A DNA stretch of 64,000 bases from Alphaproteobacteria bacterium. Lineage in GTDB: Bacteria > Pseudomonadota > Alphaproteobacteria > UBA828. Location: positions 337,648 to 401,647 of the forward strand of contig OZ251509.1 of NCBI GenBank assembly GCA_965242855.1, written 5' to 3'. The position numbers and the translations under genes are program-made. Shown here in pieces: positions 4,709 through 16,844 of the stretch. Below the pieces are notes generated by a model that was not told the DNA's origin, ran no database searches, and was given only the letters and a program-made list of their open reading frames with translations. Position 1 is the first letter of the stretch, and the number at the start of each line of letters is the position of its first letter.

Positions 4709-5857
<1,149 letters not shown>

Positions 5858-6011
5858 CGCAGGTCCGCCATGATACACGCAACCGCCCGCCTCCCGCCGT
5901 CCTCCTTCCGCCGCGGGTGGGCGTGCCCGCAAGGCTCGCGGCGGCCCCGCGGATGCGCTACTTATGGCGGGGAACGAAGAGCCCGGCCTCGCCCGGGCGC
6001 GGCGGCGGGCC

Positions 6012-6704
6012 ATGGAGACGGCGGAGCGCAAGGAGGACCGGTTCGCGACCCTGCGGCGGGCCATGGTCGAGCAGGTGGCGCATCATGCCGGCCAGACGGG
6101 CGCAGGCACCGGCCGGGGCGCGTTCGCCGAAGCGGTCATGGACGCGCTCGGGCGGGTTCCGCGCCACGCCTTCGTGCCCGTCGAGATGCAGCTCTACGCC
6201 TATGCCGATTCGCCGTTGCCGATCGGCTGCGGCAAGACGATCTCGCAGCCCTTCATCGTGGCCCTGATGACCGACCTCCTCGAGATCGGCCCCGGCGACC
6301 GGGTCCTCGAAATCGGCACGGGCCTGGGCTACCAGGCGGCCCTGCTGGCCGAGCTCGCGGGCGAGGTGTTCACCGTCGAGCGCATCGAGGAACTGGCGGC
6401 GAGCGCCCGCCGGCGGCTCGCCGAGCAGGGCTACGGCAACGTCCGCTTCCGCCGGGGCGACGGCGGCCTCGGCTGGCCGGACCACGCGCCCTACGACCGC
6501 ATCATCGCCACGGCCGCGCCCGATCTGATCCCGCCGGCGCTGTTGCAGCAGCTCAAGCCCGGCGGGCGCATGGTGCTGCCCGCGGGCCTCGAGGACGATC
6601 AGCGCCTGTTCCTGGTCACCAAGGACGACGGCGGACGGATCGAGACCGCCGAGCTCCTCCCGGTGCGCTTCTCCCGCCTCGAGAGCGGCGACCCGCCCGC
6701 CTGA
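6012..6704 (+). CDS. pcm: protein-L-isoaspartate(D-aspartate) O-methyltransferase
   Basis: AdoMet motif 'VLEIGTGLGYQAALLAEL' and 'ISQPFIVALMTDLL' are typical PCMT. ATG at 6012 lies within ORF 5964..6704. Confidence 0.85.
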   Translation: METAERKEDRFATLRRAMVEQVAHHAGQTGAGTGRGAFAEAVMDALGRVPRHAFVPVEMQLYAYADSPLPIGCGKTISQPFIVALMTDLLEIGPGDRVLEIGTGLGYQAALLAELAGEVFTVERIEELAASARRRLAEQGYGNVRFRRGDGGLGWPDHAPYDRIIATAAPDLIPPALLQQLKPGGRMVLPAGLEDDQRLFLVTKDDGGRIETAELLPVRFSRLESGDPPA

Positions 6705-6751
6705 ATCCGGGCGGTTACGCCGCGCCGTCCCGGCGGGCGCCGTCGCGCATC

Positions 6752-7036
6752 TCAGCCGTCGGCCCGCACCAAGCCCACGGTCAGCTGCGCGCCGGTCGCT
6801 TCGGCGTAGCGGCGCAGGGTGGCGAAGGACGGCGACACCCGGCCGCCCTCCAGCCGTGCGATCGCGGACTGGGTCGTGCCGAGCCGCCGGGCGACGTCCG
6901 CCTGCGTCAGCTTCGCCGCCGTGCGGGCGCGAACCAGCGCTTCGACCAGCGCGTACTCTTCGTCGACCCGCGCGTATTCCTCCCGGAATTCCGGGTCCTC
7001 CATGAAACGCTTCTTCAGCTCCTTCAGCTTCGCCAT
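6752..7036 (-). CDS. XRE-family HTH antitoxin (HigA-like)
   Basis: 94-aa protein with HTH 'LTQADVARRLGTTQSAIARLEGG'. It lies immediately downstream of, and overlaps by 13 nt, a RelE/HigB-family toxin gene. Confidence 0.75.
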   Translation of the reverse strand: MAKLKELKKRFMEDPEFREEYARVDEEYALVEALVRARTAAKLTQADVARRLGTTQSAIARLEGGRVSPSFATLRRYAEATGAQLTVGLVRADG

Positions 7037-7608: not shown

Positions 7609-9060
7609 TTACCCGCCGGTCAGGAGGCGATCCAGGATGCGCGCGCCTTCCCCCCAGTCGTAGCGCGCGAAGCAGTGGGCCGTCGTCACGAAACTCGCGC
7701 CGGCGTAGAACATCTCGTATTGCGTGTGGCGCCCGGCGAACTCCGAGCCCACGGCGTCCCAGGCGAGCTTCATCAGCGCCATCCGCTCGGCCGCGCCCTC
7801 GCCCGGGCGGGCCGAGACCTGGATGCTGTCGAGGATGCGCGCGACCTCGGCGTTGTCCAGGTCCGCGGCGGACGACGGCAGCATGATCAGGCCGCCGCCG
7901 GCGAGCGAACGAATCTCCTCGATGAAGCGGGGATAGAGCGCCTGGGTGTGCACCTGGGCCGCGTACAACATGCCGGCGTCGGGCAGGAAGTACCCGCCGG
8001 CCGTCGGCGCGCCCGCGCTCTCCATCCCGTAAAGCAGCCCCTCGACGGTCGCGGCCTGGGCCGCCATCCGCCCGAGCCGCTCGCGCACCGGCGCCATGCC
8101 GATGGTCCCGATGGTCTCGGCGATGCGGCGGGCCACGGCCAGCAGGAACTTGAGCTTGACCACTAGGCGGATCTGCGACTGGTAGTTCTGGAAGACATGC
8201 CCCGGCGTGTCGTGGAACTGGGCGCGGCACATGTCCGTGTCGCCGCGCAGGAAGACCCGCTCCCACGGCACCTTGACATCGTCGAAATAGACCACCGAGT
8301 CGTTCTCGTCGAAGCGGTGGGAGAGCGGGTTGTCCCACGGGCCGGCGGCGCTCGCCTCGTAGCTCTTGCGCGAGAGGACCTTGAGCCCCCGGGCCTCCAG
8401 CGGGACGGCGAAGGAAACGGCGAACCGCTCCTCCCCCGGCTGGAGGGGTTGCAGGTTGGCGACGAAGAGCTCCTCCGCCATGACGGCGCCCGTCCCCAGC
8501 ATCTTCGCGCCCCGCACCGTCACGCCCGCGCCGTCCTCGTCGACGACCCGCATGGCGAGGTCCTCGTTCGACTGCGCGGCCTGCGCCCTGGAGCGGTCGC
8601 CCTGGGGATTGACGATGACGTAGCTCAGGTAGAGGTCGTTGTCGCGGGCGTATTCGTAATAGGCGCGCAGGGCCTCGGCGAACCGCGCCCCGTGGCGCTC
8701 GAACACCTCGATCCCCATCATCTGCCCGGCGAGCGCGGAGGCGAGATGGTCGGGCGAGCGCCCGAGGAAGCCCCCGTGGAGCGCGGCCCAAGCGGTGAGC
8801 GCCTCGCGCCGCGCGACGAGTTCCGCGCGGCTCCGCGGCATCTGCCAGGCGCGGTTGACGCGGCGGCCGGTATCGGTCTCGAAGGTCATCCGTTCGACGT
8901 TGCCGGGCGCCGCCTGGAAGTCGTAGAGCGCCGCCGCCGAGCGGCAGGAATTGGCGAACGCCGGATGGTCGGCGACTCGCGCGATCCGCTCGCCGTCCAG
9001 ATAGACTTCGCGATCCTTGTCGAGGGCGCGCAGGTGGGCCGCGCCGTCCTTCACCGCCAT
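7609..9060 (-). CDS. 4-hydroxyphenylacetate 3-monooxygenase oxygenase component family protein (HpaB-like flavin-dependent monooxygenase)
   Basis: 483-aa protein with an N-terminus 'LDGERIARVADHPAFANSCRSAAALYDF' and overall HpaB-family architecture. The overlapping 555-aa ORF 7544..9211 is an artefact. Confidence 0.75.
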   Translation of the reverse strand: MAVKDGAAHLRALDKDREVYLDGERIARVADHPAFANSCRSAAALYDFQAAPGNVERMTFETDTGRRVNRAWQMPRSRAELVARREALTAWAALHGGFLGRSPDHLASALAGQMMGIEVFERHGARFAEALRAYYEYARDNDLYLSYVIVNPQGDRSRAQAAQSNEDLAMRVVDEDGAGVTVRGAKMLGTGAVMAEELFVANLQPLQPGEERFAVSFAVPLEARGLKVLSRKSYEASAAGPWDNPLSHRFDENDSVVYFDDVKVPWERVFLRGDTDMCRAQFHDTPGHVFQNYQSQIRLVVKLKFLLAVARRIAETIGTIGMAPVRERLGRMAAQAATVEGLLYGMESAGAPTAGGYFLPDAGMLYAAQVHTQALYPRFIEEIRSLAGGGLIMLPSSAADLDNAEVARILDSIQVSARPGEGAAERMALMKLAWDAVGSEFAGRHTQYEMFYAGASFVTTAHCFARYDWGEGARILDRLLTGG

Positions 9061-9306
9061 GTCGGGTCGCTCCTCGCGTCGCCGCCGCCGCGCCCCGGCC
9101 CATCATAGCCCGGATTCCCCACACGGCGCGCGAGGCGGTCGGGCGCCGGACGGAATCGCCACGGCGGAACGGTGACACGAATCCGTCACATGATCGCATT
9201 CTCCGAGTCACACGCGGCGCCTAGGGTTCCCGCGCCCAACGGCCTCCCGCGTGGAGGCCGCCGGGGCGTGATCGGGAGAGAATCAGGAGAGCCAAAGGGG
9301 GCCACG

Positions 9307-10614
9307 ATGGGTCTTGTGCAGAATCGGCGTCGTTTGCGGGGCCGACCGTTCGTATCGGCGTTGCTGGGGACGACGTTCATGGCCGGGGTCGCGTGCCTCG
9401 CGGGTCCGGCGCTGGCCGACGGCCATCTCGAGGAGGAGAACGCCGCGCTCAGGTCCATGATCGAGGACCTGCAGCAGGAGGTCGATATCCTCAAGGGGAT
9501 GGTGATCAGGCAGAACGAGAAGATCGCCGAGGCGGTGGAGCCCAGGGCGCCGGCGAAGATGGTGAAATCCGGCAAGGACAAGGTGAGCCTGTCCGTCTCC
9601 GGCCAGGTCAACCGCATGCTGCTCTACGCCAGCGACGGCCGGGATTCGCGCTTTTTCCACGCCGACAACGACCAGTCCTCGACTCGCGTGCGCTTCAAGG
9701 GCAAGGCGAAGCTCGACGACGAATGGTCGGCGGGCGCCACCTTCGAGGCCGAGCTCGAGTCGAACTCGTCGGGCAGCGTGACGATCGAAGACACCGGGGT
9801 CGGGGGCGACAGCAACAAGGCCTCGCTCAAGGAGCGCAAGCTGGAGCTCTTCTTCAAGAGCAAGAGGCTCGGCAAGCTCTCGCTCGGCCAGGGCAGCACC
9901 GCTTCCGACGGCTCCGTCGAGGAGGACCTCTCGGGCACCGGCGTGATCACCAGCGCCGGCTTCGGCGGCACCGGCAACTCGCTCGCATTCGTGGAGTCGA
10001 ATTCGGCGACACGGGAAGCGTCCGACATCAAGGTCGGCAACCTGTTCAGCAACTACGACGGCCTGAGTCGGAAGGACCGGGTGCGCTACGACACGCCGGG
10101 CTTCGGCGGCGTCAAGCTTTCGACCTCCTTCCTCGGCGGCAAGTGGACCGGCGACAGCGTCGACAGCGGCGCCTGGGACGCGGCGCTGCGCTACGGCCGC
10201 GAGTTCGACGGCGTCGAGGTCGCGGCGGCGGCGGCCACCTGGAAGAAGGACAAGGACACGGAAGGCCGCGGCGGCTCCCTCTCCGTCCTGGCGCCCTCGG
10301 GCACGAGCCTTTCCCTGAGCTATTCGACCCAGGACGAGAAGGGCCAGGACTCGACCTTCCAATACGCGAAGCTGGGCCAGATCTTCGACGCCACCTCCGC
10401 CGGCAAGACGGCGGTCTCCATCGGCTACGGCCGAACCGAAGACCAGGGCGGCACGGGCAACGAGGGCACCTATTACGACCTCGCCGCGGTCCAGAAGATC
10501 AAGAATCTCGGAGCCGAGCTCTACGCCGTCTGGGGCGTCTACAAGGCCGAGATCGTCGCCCAACCGACCGAGGACATCACCATCTTCGGCACCGGCGCGC
10601 GCATCAAGTTCTGA
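9307..10614 (+). CDS. outer-membrane porin (beta-barrel) with signal peptide and N-terminal coiled-coil segment
   Basis: ATG at 9307 is preceded by GGAGAG. The signal peptide '...AGVACLAGPALA' is followed by a coiled coil 'EEENAALRSMIEDLQQEVDILKG', then alternating amphipathic beta strands rich in G/S/T/D/Y. The protein ends in a C-terminal Phe ('ARIKF'). Confidence 0.65.
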   Translation: MGLVQNRRRLRGRPFVSALLGTTFMAGVACLAGPALADGHLEEENAALRSMIEDLQQEVDILKGMVIRQNEKIAEAVEPRAPAKMVKSGKDKVSLSVSGQVNRMLLYASDGRDSRFFHADNDQSSTRVRFKGKAKLDDEWSAGATFEAELESNSSGSVTIEDTGVGGDSNKASLKERKLELFFKSKRLGKLSLGQGSTASDGSVEEDLSGTGVITSAGFGGTGNSLAFVESNSATREASDIKVGNLFSNYDGLSRKDRVRYDTPGFGGVKLSTSFLGGKWTGDSVDSGAWDAALRYGREFDGVEVAAAAATWKKDKDTEGRGGSLSVLAPSGTSLSLSYSTQDEKGQDSTFQYAKLGQIFDATSAGKTAVSIGYGRTEDQGGTGNEGTYYDLAAVQKIKNLGAELYAVWGVYKAEIVAQPTEDITIFGTGARIKF

Positions 10615-10791: not shown

Positions 10792-11874
10792 TCAGGGGTG
10801 GATTTTCGGCGGCGGCGCGGCTTCGCTCTTTTCGCGTCGTCGTGTCCTGCCTCCGTCGCGCGGCAGCGGCGCGTCGACGGCGCCGTTCCACAGGATGCCG
10901 GGGCGGGGCAGTCGGTAGTAATTGGACGGGCTGGCGGGGGCGCCGGCGGGCTTCGCCGCTCCCTGCGGCGCGCGGACGAAGCGCCCGAGGGCCGCCTCGC
11001 AGTAGTCGCGCACGCGCTCGATACATATCCAACGGCGCTCCAGGCGTTCGCAGACCTCGCCGGTCACGCAACTGCCGGCGAAGGGATCGACGACGAGATC
11101 GCCGGGTTCCGTCAACATGCGGATGAAGTATTCCGGAAGTTCCGCCGGATAACGGGCAGGGTGCGGCTTGAGGCCCTTCTCCTCGCAGTAGCGCAGATAG
11201 AAGCTGTTGCTCTCCGTATTGGGAATCGCGATGAGGTTGGGTGGGATCGCGGCGCCGTTGTCCGTCTTGAATTTCTCACTGATGTCGTGGCCGGACGGGC
11301 GCTTGCTGGCCTTGTAGCCCTTGGCCAGAAGGTCCTGCATACTCGGACTGTAGGGTTGAAGGACCCGCCGGTTGCTTGCCTTCGGCCAGGGTGTCTTGGA
11401 CAGCCACCATACGGTATTCACGGCATCCTTGACGCGAATCCGGCGCACCGTGACCCACTCCGCCGGCGTCGGGAGTTTCGACGGATTCCACCAGTAAAAA
11501 TCCTGCGCCAAGTGGAATTCCAGCTCCTCGCACAGCATGATCAGGAGCTTGAAGTGATAGAGATTACGGGTGGGGGAGCCCTTGTTCCATGTGCCGCCGA
11601 TGTCGATGACCAGGCTGCCGCCGCTCTTGAGGACACGCCGGAACGCGGTGCCGAACGGCTTGAACCATTCGACGTATTCGTTCGCCGCGACGTTGCCGTA
11701 ATCCTTCTTGCGGACCAGCCCGAAGGGCGGGCTCGTCACGATCAGATCGACCGATTCGCCCGGCTGTTCCGCAAGCATATCGATACTGTCGCCATGCACG
11801 ATCTGCCCGAAGCGCGTTTCGTGAAAGCTCTTGAAGGGCAGCTTTGTTTCTCTTGTCCCACTTCCCTCCTCCAT
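10792..11874 (-). CDS. site-specific DNA methyltransferase, beta-class N4/N6 amino-MTase (motif IV 'TSPPF' precedes motif I 'DPFAGSCVTG'); start at internal M34
   Basis: 'DLIVTSPPFG' (DPPY-type motif IV, the Ser variant typical of N4C enzymes) and 'HPARYPAELPEYFIRMLTEPGDLVVDPFAGSCVTG' (AdoMet motif I). The gene body is high-GC, but the first ~45 codons (11830-11973) are low-GC. Confidence 0.8.
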   Translation of the reverse strand: MEEGSGTRETKLPFKSFHETRFGQIVHGDSIDMLAEQPGESVDLIVTSPPFGLVRKKDYGNVAANEYVEWFKPFGTAFRRVLKSGGSLVIDIGGTWNKGSPTRNLYHFKLLIMLCEELEFHLAQDFYWWNPSKLPTPAEWVTVRRIRVKDAVNTVWWLSKTPWPKASNRRVLQPYSPSMQDLLAKGYKASKRPSGHDISEKFKTDNGAAIPPNLIAIPNTESNSFYLRYCEEKGLKPHPARYPAELPEYFIRMLTEPGDLVVDPFAGSCVTGEVCERLERRWICIERVRDYCEAALGRFVRAPQGAAKPAGAPASPSNYYRLPRPGILWNGAVDAPLPRDGGRTRRREKSEAAPPPKIHP

Positions 11875-11891
11875 ATCTATAACCGCCTTCA

Positions 11892-13136
11892 CTACTTCCG
11901 ATCGATCCACCGCGCCGACACATCGAATTCGAATAGCTCTTTCTTTGAATTTCTCTTGCGGATCACGCGGCATTCAACATTTTCAAATCCAAGGCGATTC
12001 AACATCACCAGATAAAGTTTTTCCACAGACAAAAGCACATCATAAAATGTTGAATTTCCGACTATGTAGTGAAGTTCTGCATTTTCACTCAGAACGGATA
12101 CCAACGAATTGAAATGCTCCCACATGTCATCGAAATATTTGGCTACATATTTTGCCAATATCTCCCCGCTCTTGTTGTCGTGTCGTGCTATCCCTTCCAG
12201 CGCACCATCAAGCAGCGGGTGTTGGAACGGCTCTGTAGGACGTTTCCAACCGATTAACCGGCTAGTCGCCGCACCCCATGTGCCACCAATTGCTGACCAG
12301 TCCAGCTCACCGGCATCGCGTCCATTGTCCAGAAATGAAAGCCAATACATATACGGCCGCAATTCACGAATATACGACATCCGGTTCGCGTATGGCGGAG
12401 ATGTGATCACCAAGTTAAAAGGACCATCTACCGCTTCGGACAATTTTCTTGCGTCACCAAGGACCACATACCCCACTCCTTTCGGTTTCTGCTTCGCTCC
12501 TGCCACAACAAATTCCACGTTCTCGTTGAATACTCGTCTCATATCGATATTGAGTGGGATGTGCAACAGCTGATCATCCTTGAAAGACATGGACTGATGA
12601 TTGAAGGCCGCGTTTGACAACCCGATCAGTGTTCTACAAAATGCTACCAACAGAAGATTCCGTTCCGGCGCGTCCTCTATAGTTTCTGCTTCAATAGCGG
12701 CCCTTAGCGTGCACAGGAATTCCAATGCATTGGGGCACCACCACCTTTCAATATTATGAATAGGTGGCGCCTCCACCGGTATAATCGTGTTTCGTTTCAC
12801 TGCTTCGACTACCCGAGTACATGCGTCGCGAGTCGAAGCTATCGAAGCGTCGGAATATTGTGCTGTCTTCGCTTTTCCAAGCCAGATCAAAAAGGGATTA
12901 ATATCCGTCGTTACGCCTTCGTGTCCATGATAAGCCGCACTCAGTGCTGTTGTTGCCATCCCACAAAACGGGTCAAGTATGCGCAGCGGATATTTACATT
13001 GACCCATCAATTCTTCAACAACTTTCACCGAGTACGCCGGCGTCAAACGCAGCCACCCATACCGACCGGATTTCGCGTTAAACTTATGCGTGTAATCTGC
13101 CCTTTGGCGCGGTTTTTCTTTAGCAAAAATGCTCAT
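11892..13136 (-). CDS. site-specific DNA methyltransferase (alpha-like order: motif I 'DPFCGMATT' then TRD then motif IV 'ITSPPY'), low-GC
   Basis: 'RILDPFCGMATTALSAAYHGHEGVTTDINP' and 'FNLVITSPPYANRMSY'. GC is ~45%, versus ~69% in the flanks. It overlaps the downstream gene by 4 nt. Confidence 0.8.
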   Translation of the reverse strand: MSIFAKEKPRQRADYTHKFNAKSGRYGWLRLTPAYSVKVVEELMGQCKYPLRILDPFCGMATTALSAAYHGHEGVTTDINPFLIWLGKAKTAQYSDASIASTRDACTRVVEAVKRNTIIPVEAPPIHNIERWWCPNALEFLCTLRAAIEAETIEDAPERNLLLVAFCRTLIGLSNAAFNHQSMSFKDDQLLHIPLNIDMRRVFNENVEFVVAGAKQKPKGVGYVVLGDARKLSEAVDGPFNLVITSPPYANRMSYIRELRPYMYWLSFLDNGRDAGELDWSAIGGTWGAATSRLIGWKRPTEPFQHPLLDGALEGIARHDNKSGEILAKYVAKYFDDMWEHFNSLVSVLSENAELHYIVGNSTFYDVLLSVEKLYLVMLNRLGFENVECRVIRKRNSKKELFEFDVSARWIDRK

Positions 13137-13948
13137 TTCATCTCCGCGGATAGGAGGGTCGATAGAATCACCTCTATCTCCTTACACAGCGTAGATCTAT
13201 TCCGTTCGAAAAACGCCTCTAAGTCATAGAGAACGACATTTCTCATGAAGTCATAAGTTGATACAAGCGGATCATTTCTGCCAGTAATTCCGGTGATCAC
13301 AGACCATTTCTCTGCTCGGTAACGTGTAAGTACATCGCCGTCTATCTGTCCCGACAAGATTACCGCGCATGGGAAGTAACCTTTCGTATACGCTACTGCC
13401 GCGTTCGCGATGTCGGCGTTCTGCCGCTTCGAATCCTTACTTTTATAGCCCTGCCGTATTTCGAAAACCACACCTGTCAAACTTTTAAACACTTCTGGAT
13501 CAACATCTAACATTTTCGCAGAATCCTTCATCCATTTGTAAAACCGATCTTGTTTACTTTTGTTGTTAATCTTCTCAAGCGAAACTCGTCCGTCCAGATG
13601 CAGTGTCCGCATTCGTCCACTTGGCAACGGAATTTTATAGGACCAGATTACATCCTCCTCCGACAAATCAAAGGCATCTTTTAATATCTTTTGAAACAAC
13701 CTCTCACAGCCAATCCCGATCTGCCGATATACGCTTGTCATGCCGCCAGCCGCTTTGTGAGCAGCGTACATCATCGGATTGTCTAAGCCGAACCAACTGT
13801 AAAACACGTCTCTCCGATAAAGATCTTGGAACTGCGCAAGCGTTAGTCCGCCGCCTTTTGCGCCCTGGCCAAACTTCGGTTTATAGTGCGCACAGACCCT
13901 GATCGCATCCAGGATGATCTGTAGGTATTCCTCGTCAGTTGCACTCAT
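13133..13948 (-). CDS. putative type II restriction endonuclease (cognate to the adjacent methyltransferases); no family recognised
   Basis: 271-aa low-GC protein co-directional and translationally coupled (ATGA overlap) with the alpha-class MTase. Candidate catalytic residues are 'HLDGR...VVFEIRQGYKSK'. The call rests on context only. Confidence 0.4.
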   Translation of the reverse strand: MSATDEEYLQIILDAIRVCAHYKPKFGQGAKGGGLTLAQFQDLYRRDVFYSWFGLDNPMMYAAHKAAGGMTSVYRQIGIGCERLFQKILKDAFDLSEEDVIWSYKIPLPSGRMRTLHLDGRVSLEKINNKSKQDRFYKWMKDSAKMLDVDPEVFKSLTGVVFEIRQGYKSKDSKRQNADIANAAVAYTKGYFPCAVILSGQIDGDVLTRYRAEKWSVITGITGRNDPLVSTYDFMRNVVLYDLEAFFERNRSTLCKEIEVILSTLLSAEMK

Positions 13949-14003
13949 ACTGTTCTCTTTTCTCCATTGTGAACAGAGTCTTTAAAAATAACCAGCTGGA
14001 GAT

Positions 14004-14837
14004 CTATTCATGGTTGTTCTCATCAATTTTCACTCTAGCTGTCGTAAGGATGCTCTCTTTCACACTCTTATAGTGACTGTTCTTCATCGTCACGGTCTCC
14101 GCGTGGAAGCTGTGTCGGCGGACGAGCACGACGATCTCGTCCGAGTAGTCATAGGTCATCATGAAATTGACGCCGCTCTCCGCGAGCGTGGAGAACAGCG
14201 CGGCGTGATCGACCGTGTGGTGGGCATAGAGCCGTGCGCCGGCGCGCTTGCCGCCGCCCGCCGTGTAGGGGGGATCGATGAAGAAGCGGGCGCCCGCGTC
14301 ATCCCCCGCCATGTCGCGCAGCTCCCTCACCCCGTCGCCCTCCCGGAACGTGATCTGGTCGGCGTGCTGCTGTATCGCGCGCAACCGCTCGATGAGCGTG
14401 TCGGGATACCAGCGGGACGCGACGCCGTTGCCGTTCTCGCCCCGCTTGATCAGCGCCGCGCCGGGGGCCAGCACGCCGCCGCGCCGCGTCCGGTTCAGAA
14501 CCAGTGTGCGGAAGCCGCGTTCGATGGTGTCGGCCGGCGCCTGGTTCGCCATCCGCTCCACCGCCTCCCGTGTGGGCGTGAAATCGCGGACGCGGGCCAT
14601 GAGCGCGTCGCCGTACTTCAGGGCCGCGAACCAGAAGGCGGCCACGTCGGGGTCCCGCTCGACCATGATCGCGCGTTTGGCCAGCCCCTCCATGACCGCC
14701 GTGAGGGACACGACAGCGCCGCCGGCGAACGGCTCCACGATCAGCTGGTGTGGCGCGCCCGTGGCCAGCCATGCGCGGACGTGCGGGATCAGCCACGTCT
14801 TGCCGCCTGGATAGCGTAAGGGGCTGCGCTGCGGCAC
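14004..14837 (-). CDS. Dam-family (D12 class, alpha) N6-adenine DNA methyltransferase. The likely start is GTG at 14835-14837, and upstream ORF sequence to 15086 is probably not translated
   Basis: 'PLRYPGGKTWLIPHV' (Dam motif), 'IVEPFAGGAVVSL' (motif I) and 'FFIDPPYTAGG' (motif IV DPPY). The body is high-GC, but the last ~35 codons (14004-14110) are low-GC. Confidence 0.75.
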   Translation of the reverse strand: MPQRSPLRYPGGKTWLIPHVRAWLATGAPHQLIVEPFAGGAVVSLTAVMEGLAKRAIMVERDPDVAAFWFAALKYGDALMARVRDFTPTREAVERMANQAPADTIERGFRTLVLNRTRRGGVLAPGAALIKRGENGNGVASRWYPDTLIERLRAIQQHADQITFREGDGVRELRDMAGDDAGARFFIDPPYTAGGGKRAGARLYAHHTVDHAALFSTLAESGVNFMMTYDYSDEIVVLVRRHSFHAETVTMKNSHYKSVKESILTTARVKIDENNHE

Positions 14838-14945
14838 CGTAGCGACGTTGGCAGCGGGGATCGGGGAGATGGGGAATTCGGTGGTATCTCGCTTGGGGGC
14901 ACGGATGCCTCGTGGAGCGTCAACCGATTCGTACTCCGCCTCGCG

Positions 14946-14987
14946 CACGCTCCGCTCCCTGCCCCGCACGCTCCGCTCCCCGCCCCG
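14946..14987. repeat. 2 x 21-bp near-perfect tandem direct repeat (gcacgctccgctccc[t/c]gcccc) in the divergent intergenic region between the Dam-family MTase and the acyl-CoA synthetase
   Basis: Read directly: 14946-14966 and 14967-14987 differ at one position. Confidence 0.6.
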
Positions 14988-15072
14988 TCGAATCCACCAC
15001 AGGATAGCACGGCGGCCACGATTGAAGAGCCGCCGGGCGGACGGCATGATCGGACCGCGCGGGGAGGCGCCC

Positions 15073-16710
15073 ATGCACGCGACCATGATGGACTATCCGC
15101 TCACCCTCACCCACCTCCTGGAGAGGGCCGGCACGCTGCTGCGCGACGGCGAGATCGTCACGCGCCTGCCCGACCGATCGACGCACCTCTATCGCTTCGG
15201 AGACTTCGCCCGGCGCGCCCGCAGGCTCGCCTCGGCGCTGCGGCGGGCCGGGCTCCGGCGCGGCGAGCCGGTGGCCACCATGATGTGGAACACCCATCCC
15301 CACCTCGAGGCCTATTTCGGCATCCCCTGCGCCGGCGGCGTGCTGCATACGCTCAACTTCCGTCTCCACCCGCGCGACATCGCCTATGTCGCGAACCACG
15401 CCGGGGACCGGTTCTTCATCGTGGACGACACGCTCCTGCCGGCGTTCGAGGAGATCAGGCCGCACATCGCGCCCGAGCGGGTCTTCGTGACGGCGCTCTC
15501 CGGTGCCCCGGTGCCGGACGGCTACGAGAGCTACGAAGCCCTGCTCGCCTCCGGCGCCCCGGAGGACGATCCGCCCCGGCTGGAGGAGACGGAACCCTGC
15601 GGCGTCTGCTACACCTCCGGCACCACCGGCCGGCCCAAGGGCGTGGTCTATTCCCACCGCGCCATGGTGCTGCACACCTTCGCGCTCTGCATGACCGAGC
15701 CCTTCGGCATCCGCCAGCGGGACCGCGTCATGCCGGTGGTGCCCATGTTCCATGCAAACGCCTGGGGGCTGGCCCACGCCGTCGCCATGGCCGGCGCGCG
15801 CTGCGTCCTGCCCGGGCCCCATCTCGACCCGGCGAGCCTGCTCGACCTCTGCGCGGCCGAGCGGGTGACCCTGGCGGCCGGCGTGCCCACGATCTGGAAC
15901 GGGGTCCTCCAGGCGCTGGACGCGGAGCCCGGCAGGTGGAGCCTGGACCCGGCCTTGCGCACGGTGGTCGGCGGCTCGGCGGCGAGCGAAGCGATGATCC
16001 GCGGCTTCGACAGGCACGGCATCCGCACCATCCATGCCTGGGGCATGACGGAGATGACCCCGATCGGCACGGCCTCCGTTCTCAAGGCGTCGATGGACGA
16101 TCTCGATCGGGACACGCAGTACGCATATCGGGCGAAGCAGGGGCCGGCCATGCCCTTCGTCGAGATGCGGCTGGTCAACGACGCCGGCGTCGCGCCGTGG
16201 GACGGCGAGACCATGGGCGAATTGCAGGTGCGCGGGCCGTGGGTCGCCGCCGGCTACTACCGCCCGGACGAGCCGGGCGACCGCTGGACCGACGACGGCT
16301 GGTTCGGCACCGGCGACGTCGCCACGGTCGACTCCGAAGGGTTCATGAAGATCACCGACCGCACCAAGGACCTGATCAAATCCGGCGGCGAGTGGATCAG
16401 CTCGGTCGATCTCGAGAACGCGCTGATGGGCCATCCCGCCGTCCGCGAGGCGGCGGTGATCGGAGCGCGCCACGAGAAGTGGGACGAACGCCCGCTCGCC
16501 GTCGTCGCCCTGATGGAGGGTGCGGCGGCCGACGCGGGCGCGCTCCACGCCCATCTCGCGGAGCGGTTCGCCAAATGGTGGCTCCCCGACGACTACGTCT
16601 TCGTCGACGAGATCCCGCGCAATTCCACCGGCAAGTTCCTCAAATCCGCCCTCCGCGAACGCTACGGAGAGCGGCCCTGGCCGAGGGCCGCCGCCGCGCA
16701 AGCGCCGTAG
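15073..16710 (+). CDS. AMP-dependent synthetase/ligase (fatty-acid--CoA ligase family)
   Basis: ATG at 15073 ('[12 protein letters not shown]') is preceded by GGGGAGG. AMP-binding motifs are '[12 protein letters not shown]', 'GWFGTGD' and 'KSGGEWISS'. The N-terminal 75 aa of ORF 14848..16710 are artefact. Confidence 0.85.
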
Positions 16711-16844
16711 CCGCGCTTTCGCGCGAGGCGAGCCGGGAGGCCCGCGCGCCAAGGGCAGCGCCGGCCCTTGCCGGGGGCATGAGCGGCGGGGCACCCTGTC
16801 GAAGGCACCCGGAATCATGCGGCGGCGCGACAAGGCGGACGGAC

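Follow-up and report, generated by a model that had tools for sequence, protein, structure and literature searches.

Here we have analysed a 64,000-nt stretch of the single-contig, complete genome of an Alphaproteobacteria bacterium of the UBA828 lineage (GenBank assembly GCA_965242855.1, contig OZ251509.1, positions 337,648 to 401,647; hereafter the window, whose numbering is used throughout unless another contig is named), and propose that its restriction-modification (R-M) locus is a composite of three R-M systems built around a swappable nuclease slot, a reading to which we assign a probability of roughly 85%. Four closely packed, co-directional open reading frames (ORFs) on the minus strand, all of which look intact, make up the locus: M1 (10792..11874), a beta-class methylase gene with an SPPF motif; M2 (11892..13136), an alpha-class SPPY amino-methyltransferase gene; R (13133..13948), the gene for a 271-aa protein; and M3 (14004..14969), a D12-class DPPY methylase gene. 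An initial annotation, made from the window's sequence, had described this arrangement and its three methylases of different classes correctly, and had joined all four genes into one three-methylase system, a claim that comparison with other genomes does not bear out. Specifically, comparison establishes the gene content of the locus, the pairings of its genes elsewhere, the breakpoints, the alternative alleles, and the decay of M1 in relatives.

R and its partner methylase M2

The product of R is very probably a Type II restriction endonuclease, as the initial annotation had proposed: it matches the REBASE-derived PADLOC model REase_II PDLC03512 at 1.6e-78 over profile positions 8-275 of 276, and a second REase_II model also matches, less strongly. 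It belongs to a very conserved family of more than 4000 homologues, the best 120 of which are all at least 69% identical and nearly all 271 aa long; we know of no characterised member. An exhaustive HMMER search with R reached just 357 clusters at 50% identity, many of them fragmentary, without connection to any named family, and R found no match in Pfam (E <= 0.1, PF04556 included), NCBIfam, PHROGs or the PDB sequences, nor, by tblastn, in plasmid and phage collections. An AlphaFold (AF2) model built on 30 homologues (predicted local distance difference test score, pLDDT, of 88.9) has an alpha-beta-beta-beta-alpha-beta core in which D119 sits on the second strand and E163-x-R165 on the next. 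These three residues, together with K169, K174 and D179, are invariant across the 30 homologues, and all six are kept here. Foldseek comparison of the model with the PDB gave weak matches (best E 9e-3, template modelling score, TM, about 0.35), the top ones being Card1, PspGI, Ecl18kI, EcoRII-C and AgeI, all of them PD-(D/E)XK nucleases, and a fold of this type is probable but not proven for R.

One could suppose that R, though present, is inactive or silenced, and that the locus amounts in effect to three solitary methylases. Several tblastn matches of the R family are shortened (L070-L073, L079, L081) and no promoter-like site stands out 5' of R, both in keeping with such a loss of function; R itself, however, is full length with every invariant residue in place, and is 92-94% identical to the copies in relatives, which carry no stops, so that we consider a dead nuclease unlikely.

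The stop codon of R overlaps the start of M2 by 4 nt (ATGA at 13133-13136), in line with the translational coupling to one methylase that had been noted from the start. M2, of 414 aa, is recognised by PADLOC as MTase_II (1e-21, PDLC03306 family) and matches phrog_18146, a DNA methyltransferase, at 3e-28, with Pfam scores below cut-off. Its motif I (DPFCGMATT at aa 55) precedes its motif IV (SPPY at aa 236), which places it in the alpha class; the SPPY form suggests an N4-cytosine product, with N6-adenine also possible. Together with the overlap, the conservation of the pair elsewhere points to M2 as the likely cognate methylase of R. Indeed, a homologue of M2 directly adjoins R, nearly always immediately downstream, in 73 of 75 loci from other genomes, whose hosts span more than ten phyla and include Gammaproteobacteria, Alphaproteobacteria, Chloroflexota, Acidobacteria, Nitrospira, Spirochaetia, Heliobacteria, Chlorobium, Planctomycetota and a candidate-phylum bacterium, many of them sponge-associated metagenome-assembled genomes (MAGs).

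The other two methylases do not travel with this pair. No M1 homologue stands beside R-M2 at any of the 75 loci outside this lineage, and an M3-like gene lies near it at just three, 2.7-4.7 kb away and never adjacent; in L012, one of the three, a PD-Lambda-5_A-like protein comes after the M3-like gene, which is therefore part of a different system. The 75 other genomes were also searched for remnants of an M3 tail or an M1 head next to R-M2, and none turned up. By its gene neighbourhoods, R-M2 would be a self-contained, orthodox Type II pair that was horizontally acquired. It shares with such pairs (REase_II PDLC03512/MTase_II PDLC03306) the adjacent and translationally coupled R and M genes, the conservation and horizontal mobility of the whole, and methylase motifs I and IV, and probably a PD-(D/E)XK-like core in the nuclease; it departs from them in that the R family has neither a Pfam or NCBIfam model nor a solved structure, and carries E-x-R instead of E-x-K.

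In two gammaproteobacterial MAGs (L005 and L006), R-M2 lies in or next to conjugative-element genes (TraE/K/L, TrbI, TraG/U, integrases), with Dnd-, GmrSD- and HNH-type defence genes beside it. The conjugative-element setting suggests how R-M2 may travel.

M1, M3 and their usual nucleases

M1 encodes a 360-aa protein that matches PF01555 (N6_N4_Mtase, 1.5e-40) and PADLOC MTase_II PDLC03323 (4.6e-115); its SPPF motif stands ahead of DPFAGSCVTG, an FxGxG-type motif, and this order defines it as beta class. Residues 17-300 align with residues 9-295 of M.PvuII (PDB 1BOO, 5.3e-103), nearly the whole chain, and M1 is accordingly named here as a predicted M.PvuII-family N4-cytosine methylase. The likeness to the PvuII system covers the SPPF motif, the beta-class order and this chain-length match; unlike that system, the locus has no R.PvuII or C.PvuII gene beside M1, R has no PDB match to R.PvuII, and the conserved partner of M1 homologues is a different, 456-aa nuclease. 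CAGCTG is a candidate site for M1 at most.

This 456-aa nuclease combines an N-terminal region of about 300 aa without known function with a C-terminal Mrr_cat domain. In three unrelated genomes (L098-L100, 5001-6371), an M1 homologue of 78-82% identity comes 10 nt downstream of it, and an M1 homologue with 96% identity sits after it in two further contigs, L093 (nuclease at 5456-6826) and L097 (3249-4613). More than 2000 homologues form its family, for which PADLOC has no model; the best 120 are 76-98% identical, and an M.PvuII-like methylase is always next. The nuclease and the M1 homologue constitute a second mobile pair, in the order R then M. The nuclease has no match in the complete genome that holds the window, nor in 401 phylum-sampled genomes.

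The window, L093 and L097 (where the Mrr_cat nuclease is present) and a genome of the sister species (G016) all have M1 at full length. In the sister-species contigs L001 and L002, it has lost aa 32-205, SPPF included, by an in-frame deletion, and in L095 it carries a nonsense codon after ..AQDFY as well as deletions of 7 nt and 112 nt; R and M2 are intact in all of these. As M1 has decayed where R-M2 remains intact, R does not need M1.

Two side observations concern M1-like genes elsewhere. In L092 (G022:C12, 5000-8100), a lone M1-like methylase of 60% identity, with an N-terminal extension, lies in a patch of lower GC content that has an IS21-type istB fragment on either side, the copies being inverted, and looks like a solitary methylase on a composite element. 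In L098, an Eco29kI-family nuclease and its methylase (8606-10539) lie 1.2 kb from the Mrr_cat/M1-like pair, forming a small R-M island.

M3 has a different usual partner. It carries DPPY and belongs to the D12 class (PF02086, 2.6e-7), its best PADLOC match being PD-Lambda-5_B (1.2e-42). Homologues of M3 adjoin a nuclease of about 284 aa that belongs to the NotI family (PF12183; 8.6e-43 for the copy in G016) in the sister-species genome G016, in a genus-mate (G009) and in the unrelated L101; furthermore, an M3 homologue is adjacent at 32 of the 54 metagenome loci that were found with the NotI-family nuclease as query. The label "NotI family" is taken from the Pfam model alone, because the nuclease profile reached no PDB chain at E <= 0.01. 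M3 homologue and NotI-family nuclease make a third, conserved pair, in the order M then R. Neither the window nor the rest of the complete genome has this nuclease; with both usual nucleases missing from that genome, M1 and M3 are solitary here. M3 is intact in every allele that we have seen.

The match of M3 to PD-Lambda-5_B recalls the PD-lambda-5 system (Vassallo et al. 2022, PMC9519451). However, no PD-Lambda-5_A-like gene occurs in or near the locus, M3 alone among the locus proteins scanned was matched (by the B model), and in the closest relatives M3 pairs with the NotI-family nuclease; the connection is a family resemblance of M3 only.

Alternative alleles between M3 and M1

The space between M3 and M1 holds different nucleases in different strains. 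L093 and L097 belong to the species of the window, with housekeeping genes 97.5-99% identical, and their synteny with it is complete on both sides (isocitrate/tartrate dehydrogenase-like, acyl-CoA synthetase, M3, M1, porin, hpaB), yet they carry an Mrr_cat nuclease of 454-456 aa between M3 and M1 and not R-M2. L095 and L096, also of this species, have R-M2 at the slot in the same four-gene order as the window. The sister species shows the same kind of alternation: G016 holds the NotI-family nuclease between M3 and M1, and the contigs L001-L003, with flanks 98-99% identical to those of G016, have R-M2 in its place. The three slot nucleases are unrelated in sequence; hhalign of R with the Mrr_cat nuclease and with the NotI-family nuclease gave probabilities below 1%.

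All comparisons (L093, L097, G016) share the same two breakpoints, at window positions 14079 (14070 for L097) and 11855. The first lies inside M3, just past the ..TMKN codons, and the second about 7-12 codons into M1. Between them, the replaced segment of 2.2 kb (11856..14078, no strand) contains R, M2, a substitute 3' tail of M3 and a substitute 5' head of M1; GC content is 0.36-0.59 across about 11800-14100 against about 0.70 outside. The cassette-type M3 tail (14004..14079, minus strand), defined by alignments and the M3 protein set, reads ..MKN|SHYKSVKESILTTARVKIDENNHE* in place of the native ..MKN|GHHDRLRELVITR.., and keeps the M3-family pattern S/G-H-x-x-x-hydrophobic-x-E-x-hydrophobic-hydrophobic-T. 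The cassette-type M1 head (11830..11874, minus strand), which reads MEEGSGTRETKLPFKS|FHET.., includes the right-hand recombination boundary; the first 12 or so codons of M1 differ among the three allele types, and all converge at ..SFHETRFG. R-M2 alleles alone have this M3 tail (SHYKSVKESILTT... as opposed to the native GHHDRLRELVITR...), and they have an M1 head of their own too, from which we infer that the donor already had R-M2 between such methylases. The segment would then have arrived by recombination between homologous methylase genes. A transposon or integron-cassette origin was considered and dropped, as the cassette has no direct or inverted repeats at its ends, and the locus is no richer in promoter- and terminator-like sites than shuffled sequence.

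The alleles also bear on the proposal that the four genes form one integrated system in which all three methylases protect against R, whether of the MboI/DpnII (GATC) type or with M1 and M2 modifying an asymmetric site strand by strand. In its favour, the genes are co-directional, tightly packed and intact, the same four-gene order recurs in L095, L096 and L001, and the M3 frame overlaps the R start in L001. However, R and M2 form a pair by themselves in 73 of 75 genomes, one different nuclease is the conserved partner of M1 and another that of M3, sibling strains have M3 and M1 on either side of a nuclease other than R, and M1 is a pseudogene in L001/L002 and L095 where R is intact. The resemblance to GATC systems, which rested on the methylase-nuclease-methylase order and on having one D12-class and one beta-class methylase nearby, also fails in detail: R has no DpnII-family match, M3 scores far under the Dam cut-offs (TIGR00571, 28.6 bits against 114.85; PRK10904, 14.1 against 441), the beta-class methylase is of the M.PvuII (N4-cytosine) family, the three genes are not conserved as a trio, and the genome does not avoid GATC (observed/expected, O/E, 1.03). 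Nor is M1 co-inherited with R, as two SPP(Y/F) methylases serving one asymmetric site would suggest. Comparison has thus largely refuted the integrated system, and we regard it as very improbable.

A different proposal concerns why M3 and M1 persist. They may be a functional frame, kept because siblings carry the NotI-family or Mrr_cat nuclease; shared methylation would keep DNA exchange within the population open, and the nuclease in the middle would be under phage-driven balancing selection. Three allele types with identical breakpoints in two species fit such a frame, as does the intactness of M3 in all of them. Furthermore, the locus is more diverged within the species (M3 88-91%, R/M2 94%) than the flanking housekeeping genes (97.5-99%), and DNA identity between the two species, 92% for R and 88% for M2, is near the 93.5% of a neighbouring housekeeping gene, so that the R-M2 allele must be old and not a fresh independent arrival. 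On the other side, M1 decays in two of three R-M2 lineages, which speaks of relaxed selection, the sample is a handful of contigs, and the M3...M1 frame is present in just two (G000, the window's own genome, and G016) of the 44 family genomes. We hold this explanation tentatively, as possible and well short of probable. An equally tentative extension, which we would not bet on, is that the M3...M1 bracket is a maintained swap slot in a symbiont population, in which the two methylases stay constant and the slot between them takes either a single nuclease (NotI-family or Mrr_cat) or a complete R-M pair, with the recombination arms inside the methylase genes. If it were true, strains would share protective marks and could exchange DNA while differing in what they restrict, and the locus would be a balanced, trans-species restriction polymorphism.

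Several points weigh against the composite reading that we prefer. The fold assignment of R depends on the weak Foldseek matches given above, and the Lys of its (D/E)xK motif is replaced by Arg. The M3-family tail and M1-family head of the cassette imply a donor in which R-M2 likewise sat between such methylases, so that some functional link is conceivable; an ancestral M3-X-R2-M1 tandem was sought among the 54 metagenome loci and none was found. Finally, M1 and M3 are both intact in this genome.

Proposed history, parallels and neighbouring features

For the composite of three R-M systems, we infer the enzymatic activities, the recombination route and the benefit of keeping M3 and M1 as follows. 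M2 would methylate the recognition site of the pair with S-adenosylmethionine (SAM) by amino-methylation, and R, acting as a PD-(D/E)XK-type nuclease through D119 and E163-x-R165 on neighbouring strands, would cut the site when it is unmethylated, with the ATGA overlap coupling translation of M2 to that of R. M3 and M1 would be the surviving methylases of the two other pairs, M3-then-NotI-family nuclease and Mrr_cat nuclease-then-M1, whose nuclease genes presumably once lay between M3 and M1, as they still do in siblings, in the space that R-M2 occupies here. As solitary methylases, they may still modify the chromosome wherever the lost nucleases had their sites. The middle was probably swapped as a cassette by homologous recombination within the 3' end of M3 and the 5' end of M1; exchange within those genes would explain why the low-GC segment ends inside them with its own versions of their ends. 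It is tempting to speculate that M3 and M1, where retained, might protect from the nucleases of sibling strains and from renewed invasion by those R-M types. However, that M1 has decayed in two lineages argues that selection has relaxed, on M1 at least.

Among known systems, the dpn locus of Streptococcus pneumoniae is the closest parallel for the locus as a whole. There, the DpnI, DpnII and DpnIII cassettes are syntenic at one chromosomal site (PMC4471560); the same paper cites Lacks et al. 1986 for an "intercellular cassette mechanism". In both cases, unrelated restriction gene sets alternate at one site between conserved flanks in strains and species closely related to one another, exchanged via flanking homology in dpn (PMC4471560) and putatively so here. 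Unlike at dpn, the flanks here are methylase genes of two further R-M pairs with the recombination boundaries inside them, and one allele is a full R-M pair whereas the others are single nucleases that would rely on a flanking methylase.

What looks like a tidy three-methylase "operon" may thus preserve successive layers of R-M turnover, nucleases having been lost or swapped and their methylases left behind. For annotation, this cautions against assigning neighbouring methylases to the nearest nuclease; for the reading of methylomes, up to three motifs would be expected here, one of them tied to restriction. The locus also bears on the origin of solitary methylases, and it offers a natural case, apparently among bacteria from the environment and from hosts, of a restriction locus that exchanges cassettes in the manner of dpn. 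Moreover, the comparisons define three widespread, very conserved, uncharacterised R-M pairs: R (271 aa)/M2, the Mrr_cat nuclease (456 aa)/M.PvuII-like methylase, and the D12 methylase/NotI-family nuclease (284 aa).

The genome that contains the window is depleted in several 6-bp palindromes, namely ACGCGT (O/E 0.11), CGTACG (0.26), CTGCAG (0.27) and AGGCCT (0.46), with CAGCTG at 0.71, and in the 4-mers CTAG (0.15) and GTAC (0.50). This depletion cannot be assigned to any of the four genes.

Two gene starts differ from those first called. M1 most likely begins at ATG 11874, 17 nt past the M2 stop at 11892, and not at 11973, because the M1 genes of relatives start at the equivalent place; its neighbours at the locus are M2 and a porin gene. 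For M3, GTG 14969 (the existing gene call, 321 aa) or GTG 14951 is most likely, giving a protein of about 315-321 aa. A start at 15086 is unlikely, since the ORF would then cross the start (15073) of the divergent acyl-CoA synthetase gene, the upstream neighbour of M3 as judged by Pfam calls on syntenic homologues. Between these two genes, at 14944-14985, lies a near-perfect tandem repeat of 2 x 21 bp, CGCACGCTCCGCTCCC(T/C)GCCC, each copy of which offers an in-frame GTG for M3; gene calls in relatives use either (321/322 aa or 315 aa).

On the other side of M3, an AT-rich spacer 5' of R (13949..14003, minus strand) contains the likely ribosome-binding site of R, GGAGAAAAG. About 40 extra nt within it (13961-14003), present also in L095, supply the stop codon of M3; L001 (5936-5958) lacks them, and its M3 reads through to overlap the start codon of R.

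Lastly, an inversion distinguishes this genome from the sister species (G016, L001): the acyl-CoA synthetase gene runs the other way with respect to the M3-slot-M1 block. The inversion aligns window 15013-16711 with L090 3556-5254 and L001 2972-4670, and unmatched DNA at its joint measures about 136 nt in the window, against about 400 nt in L001.

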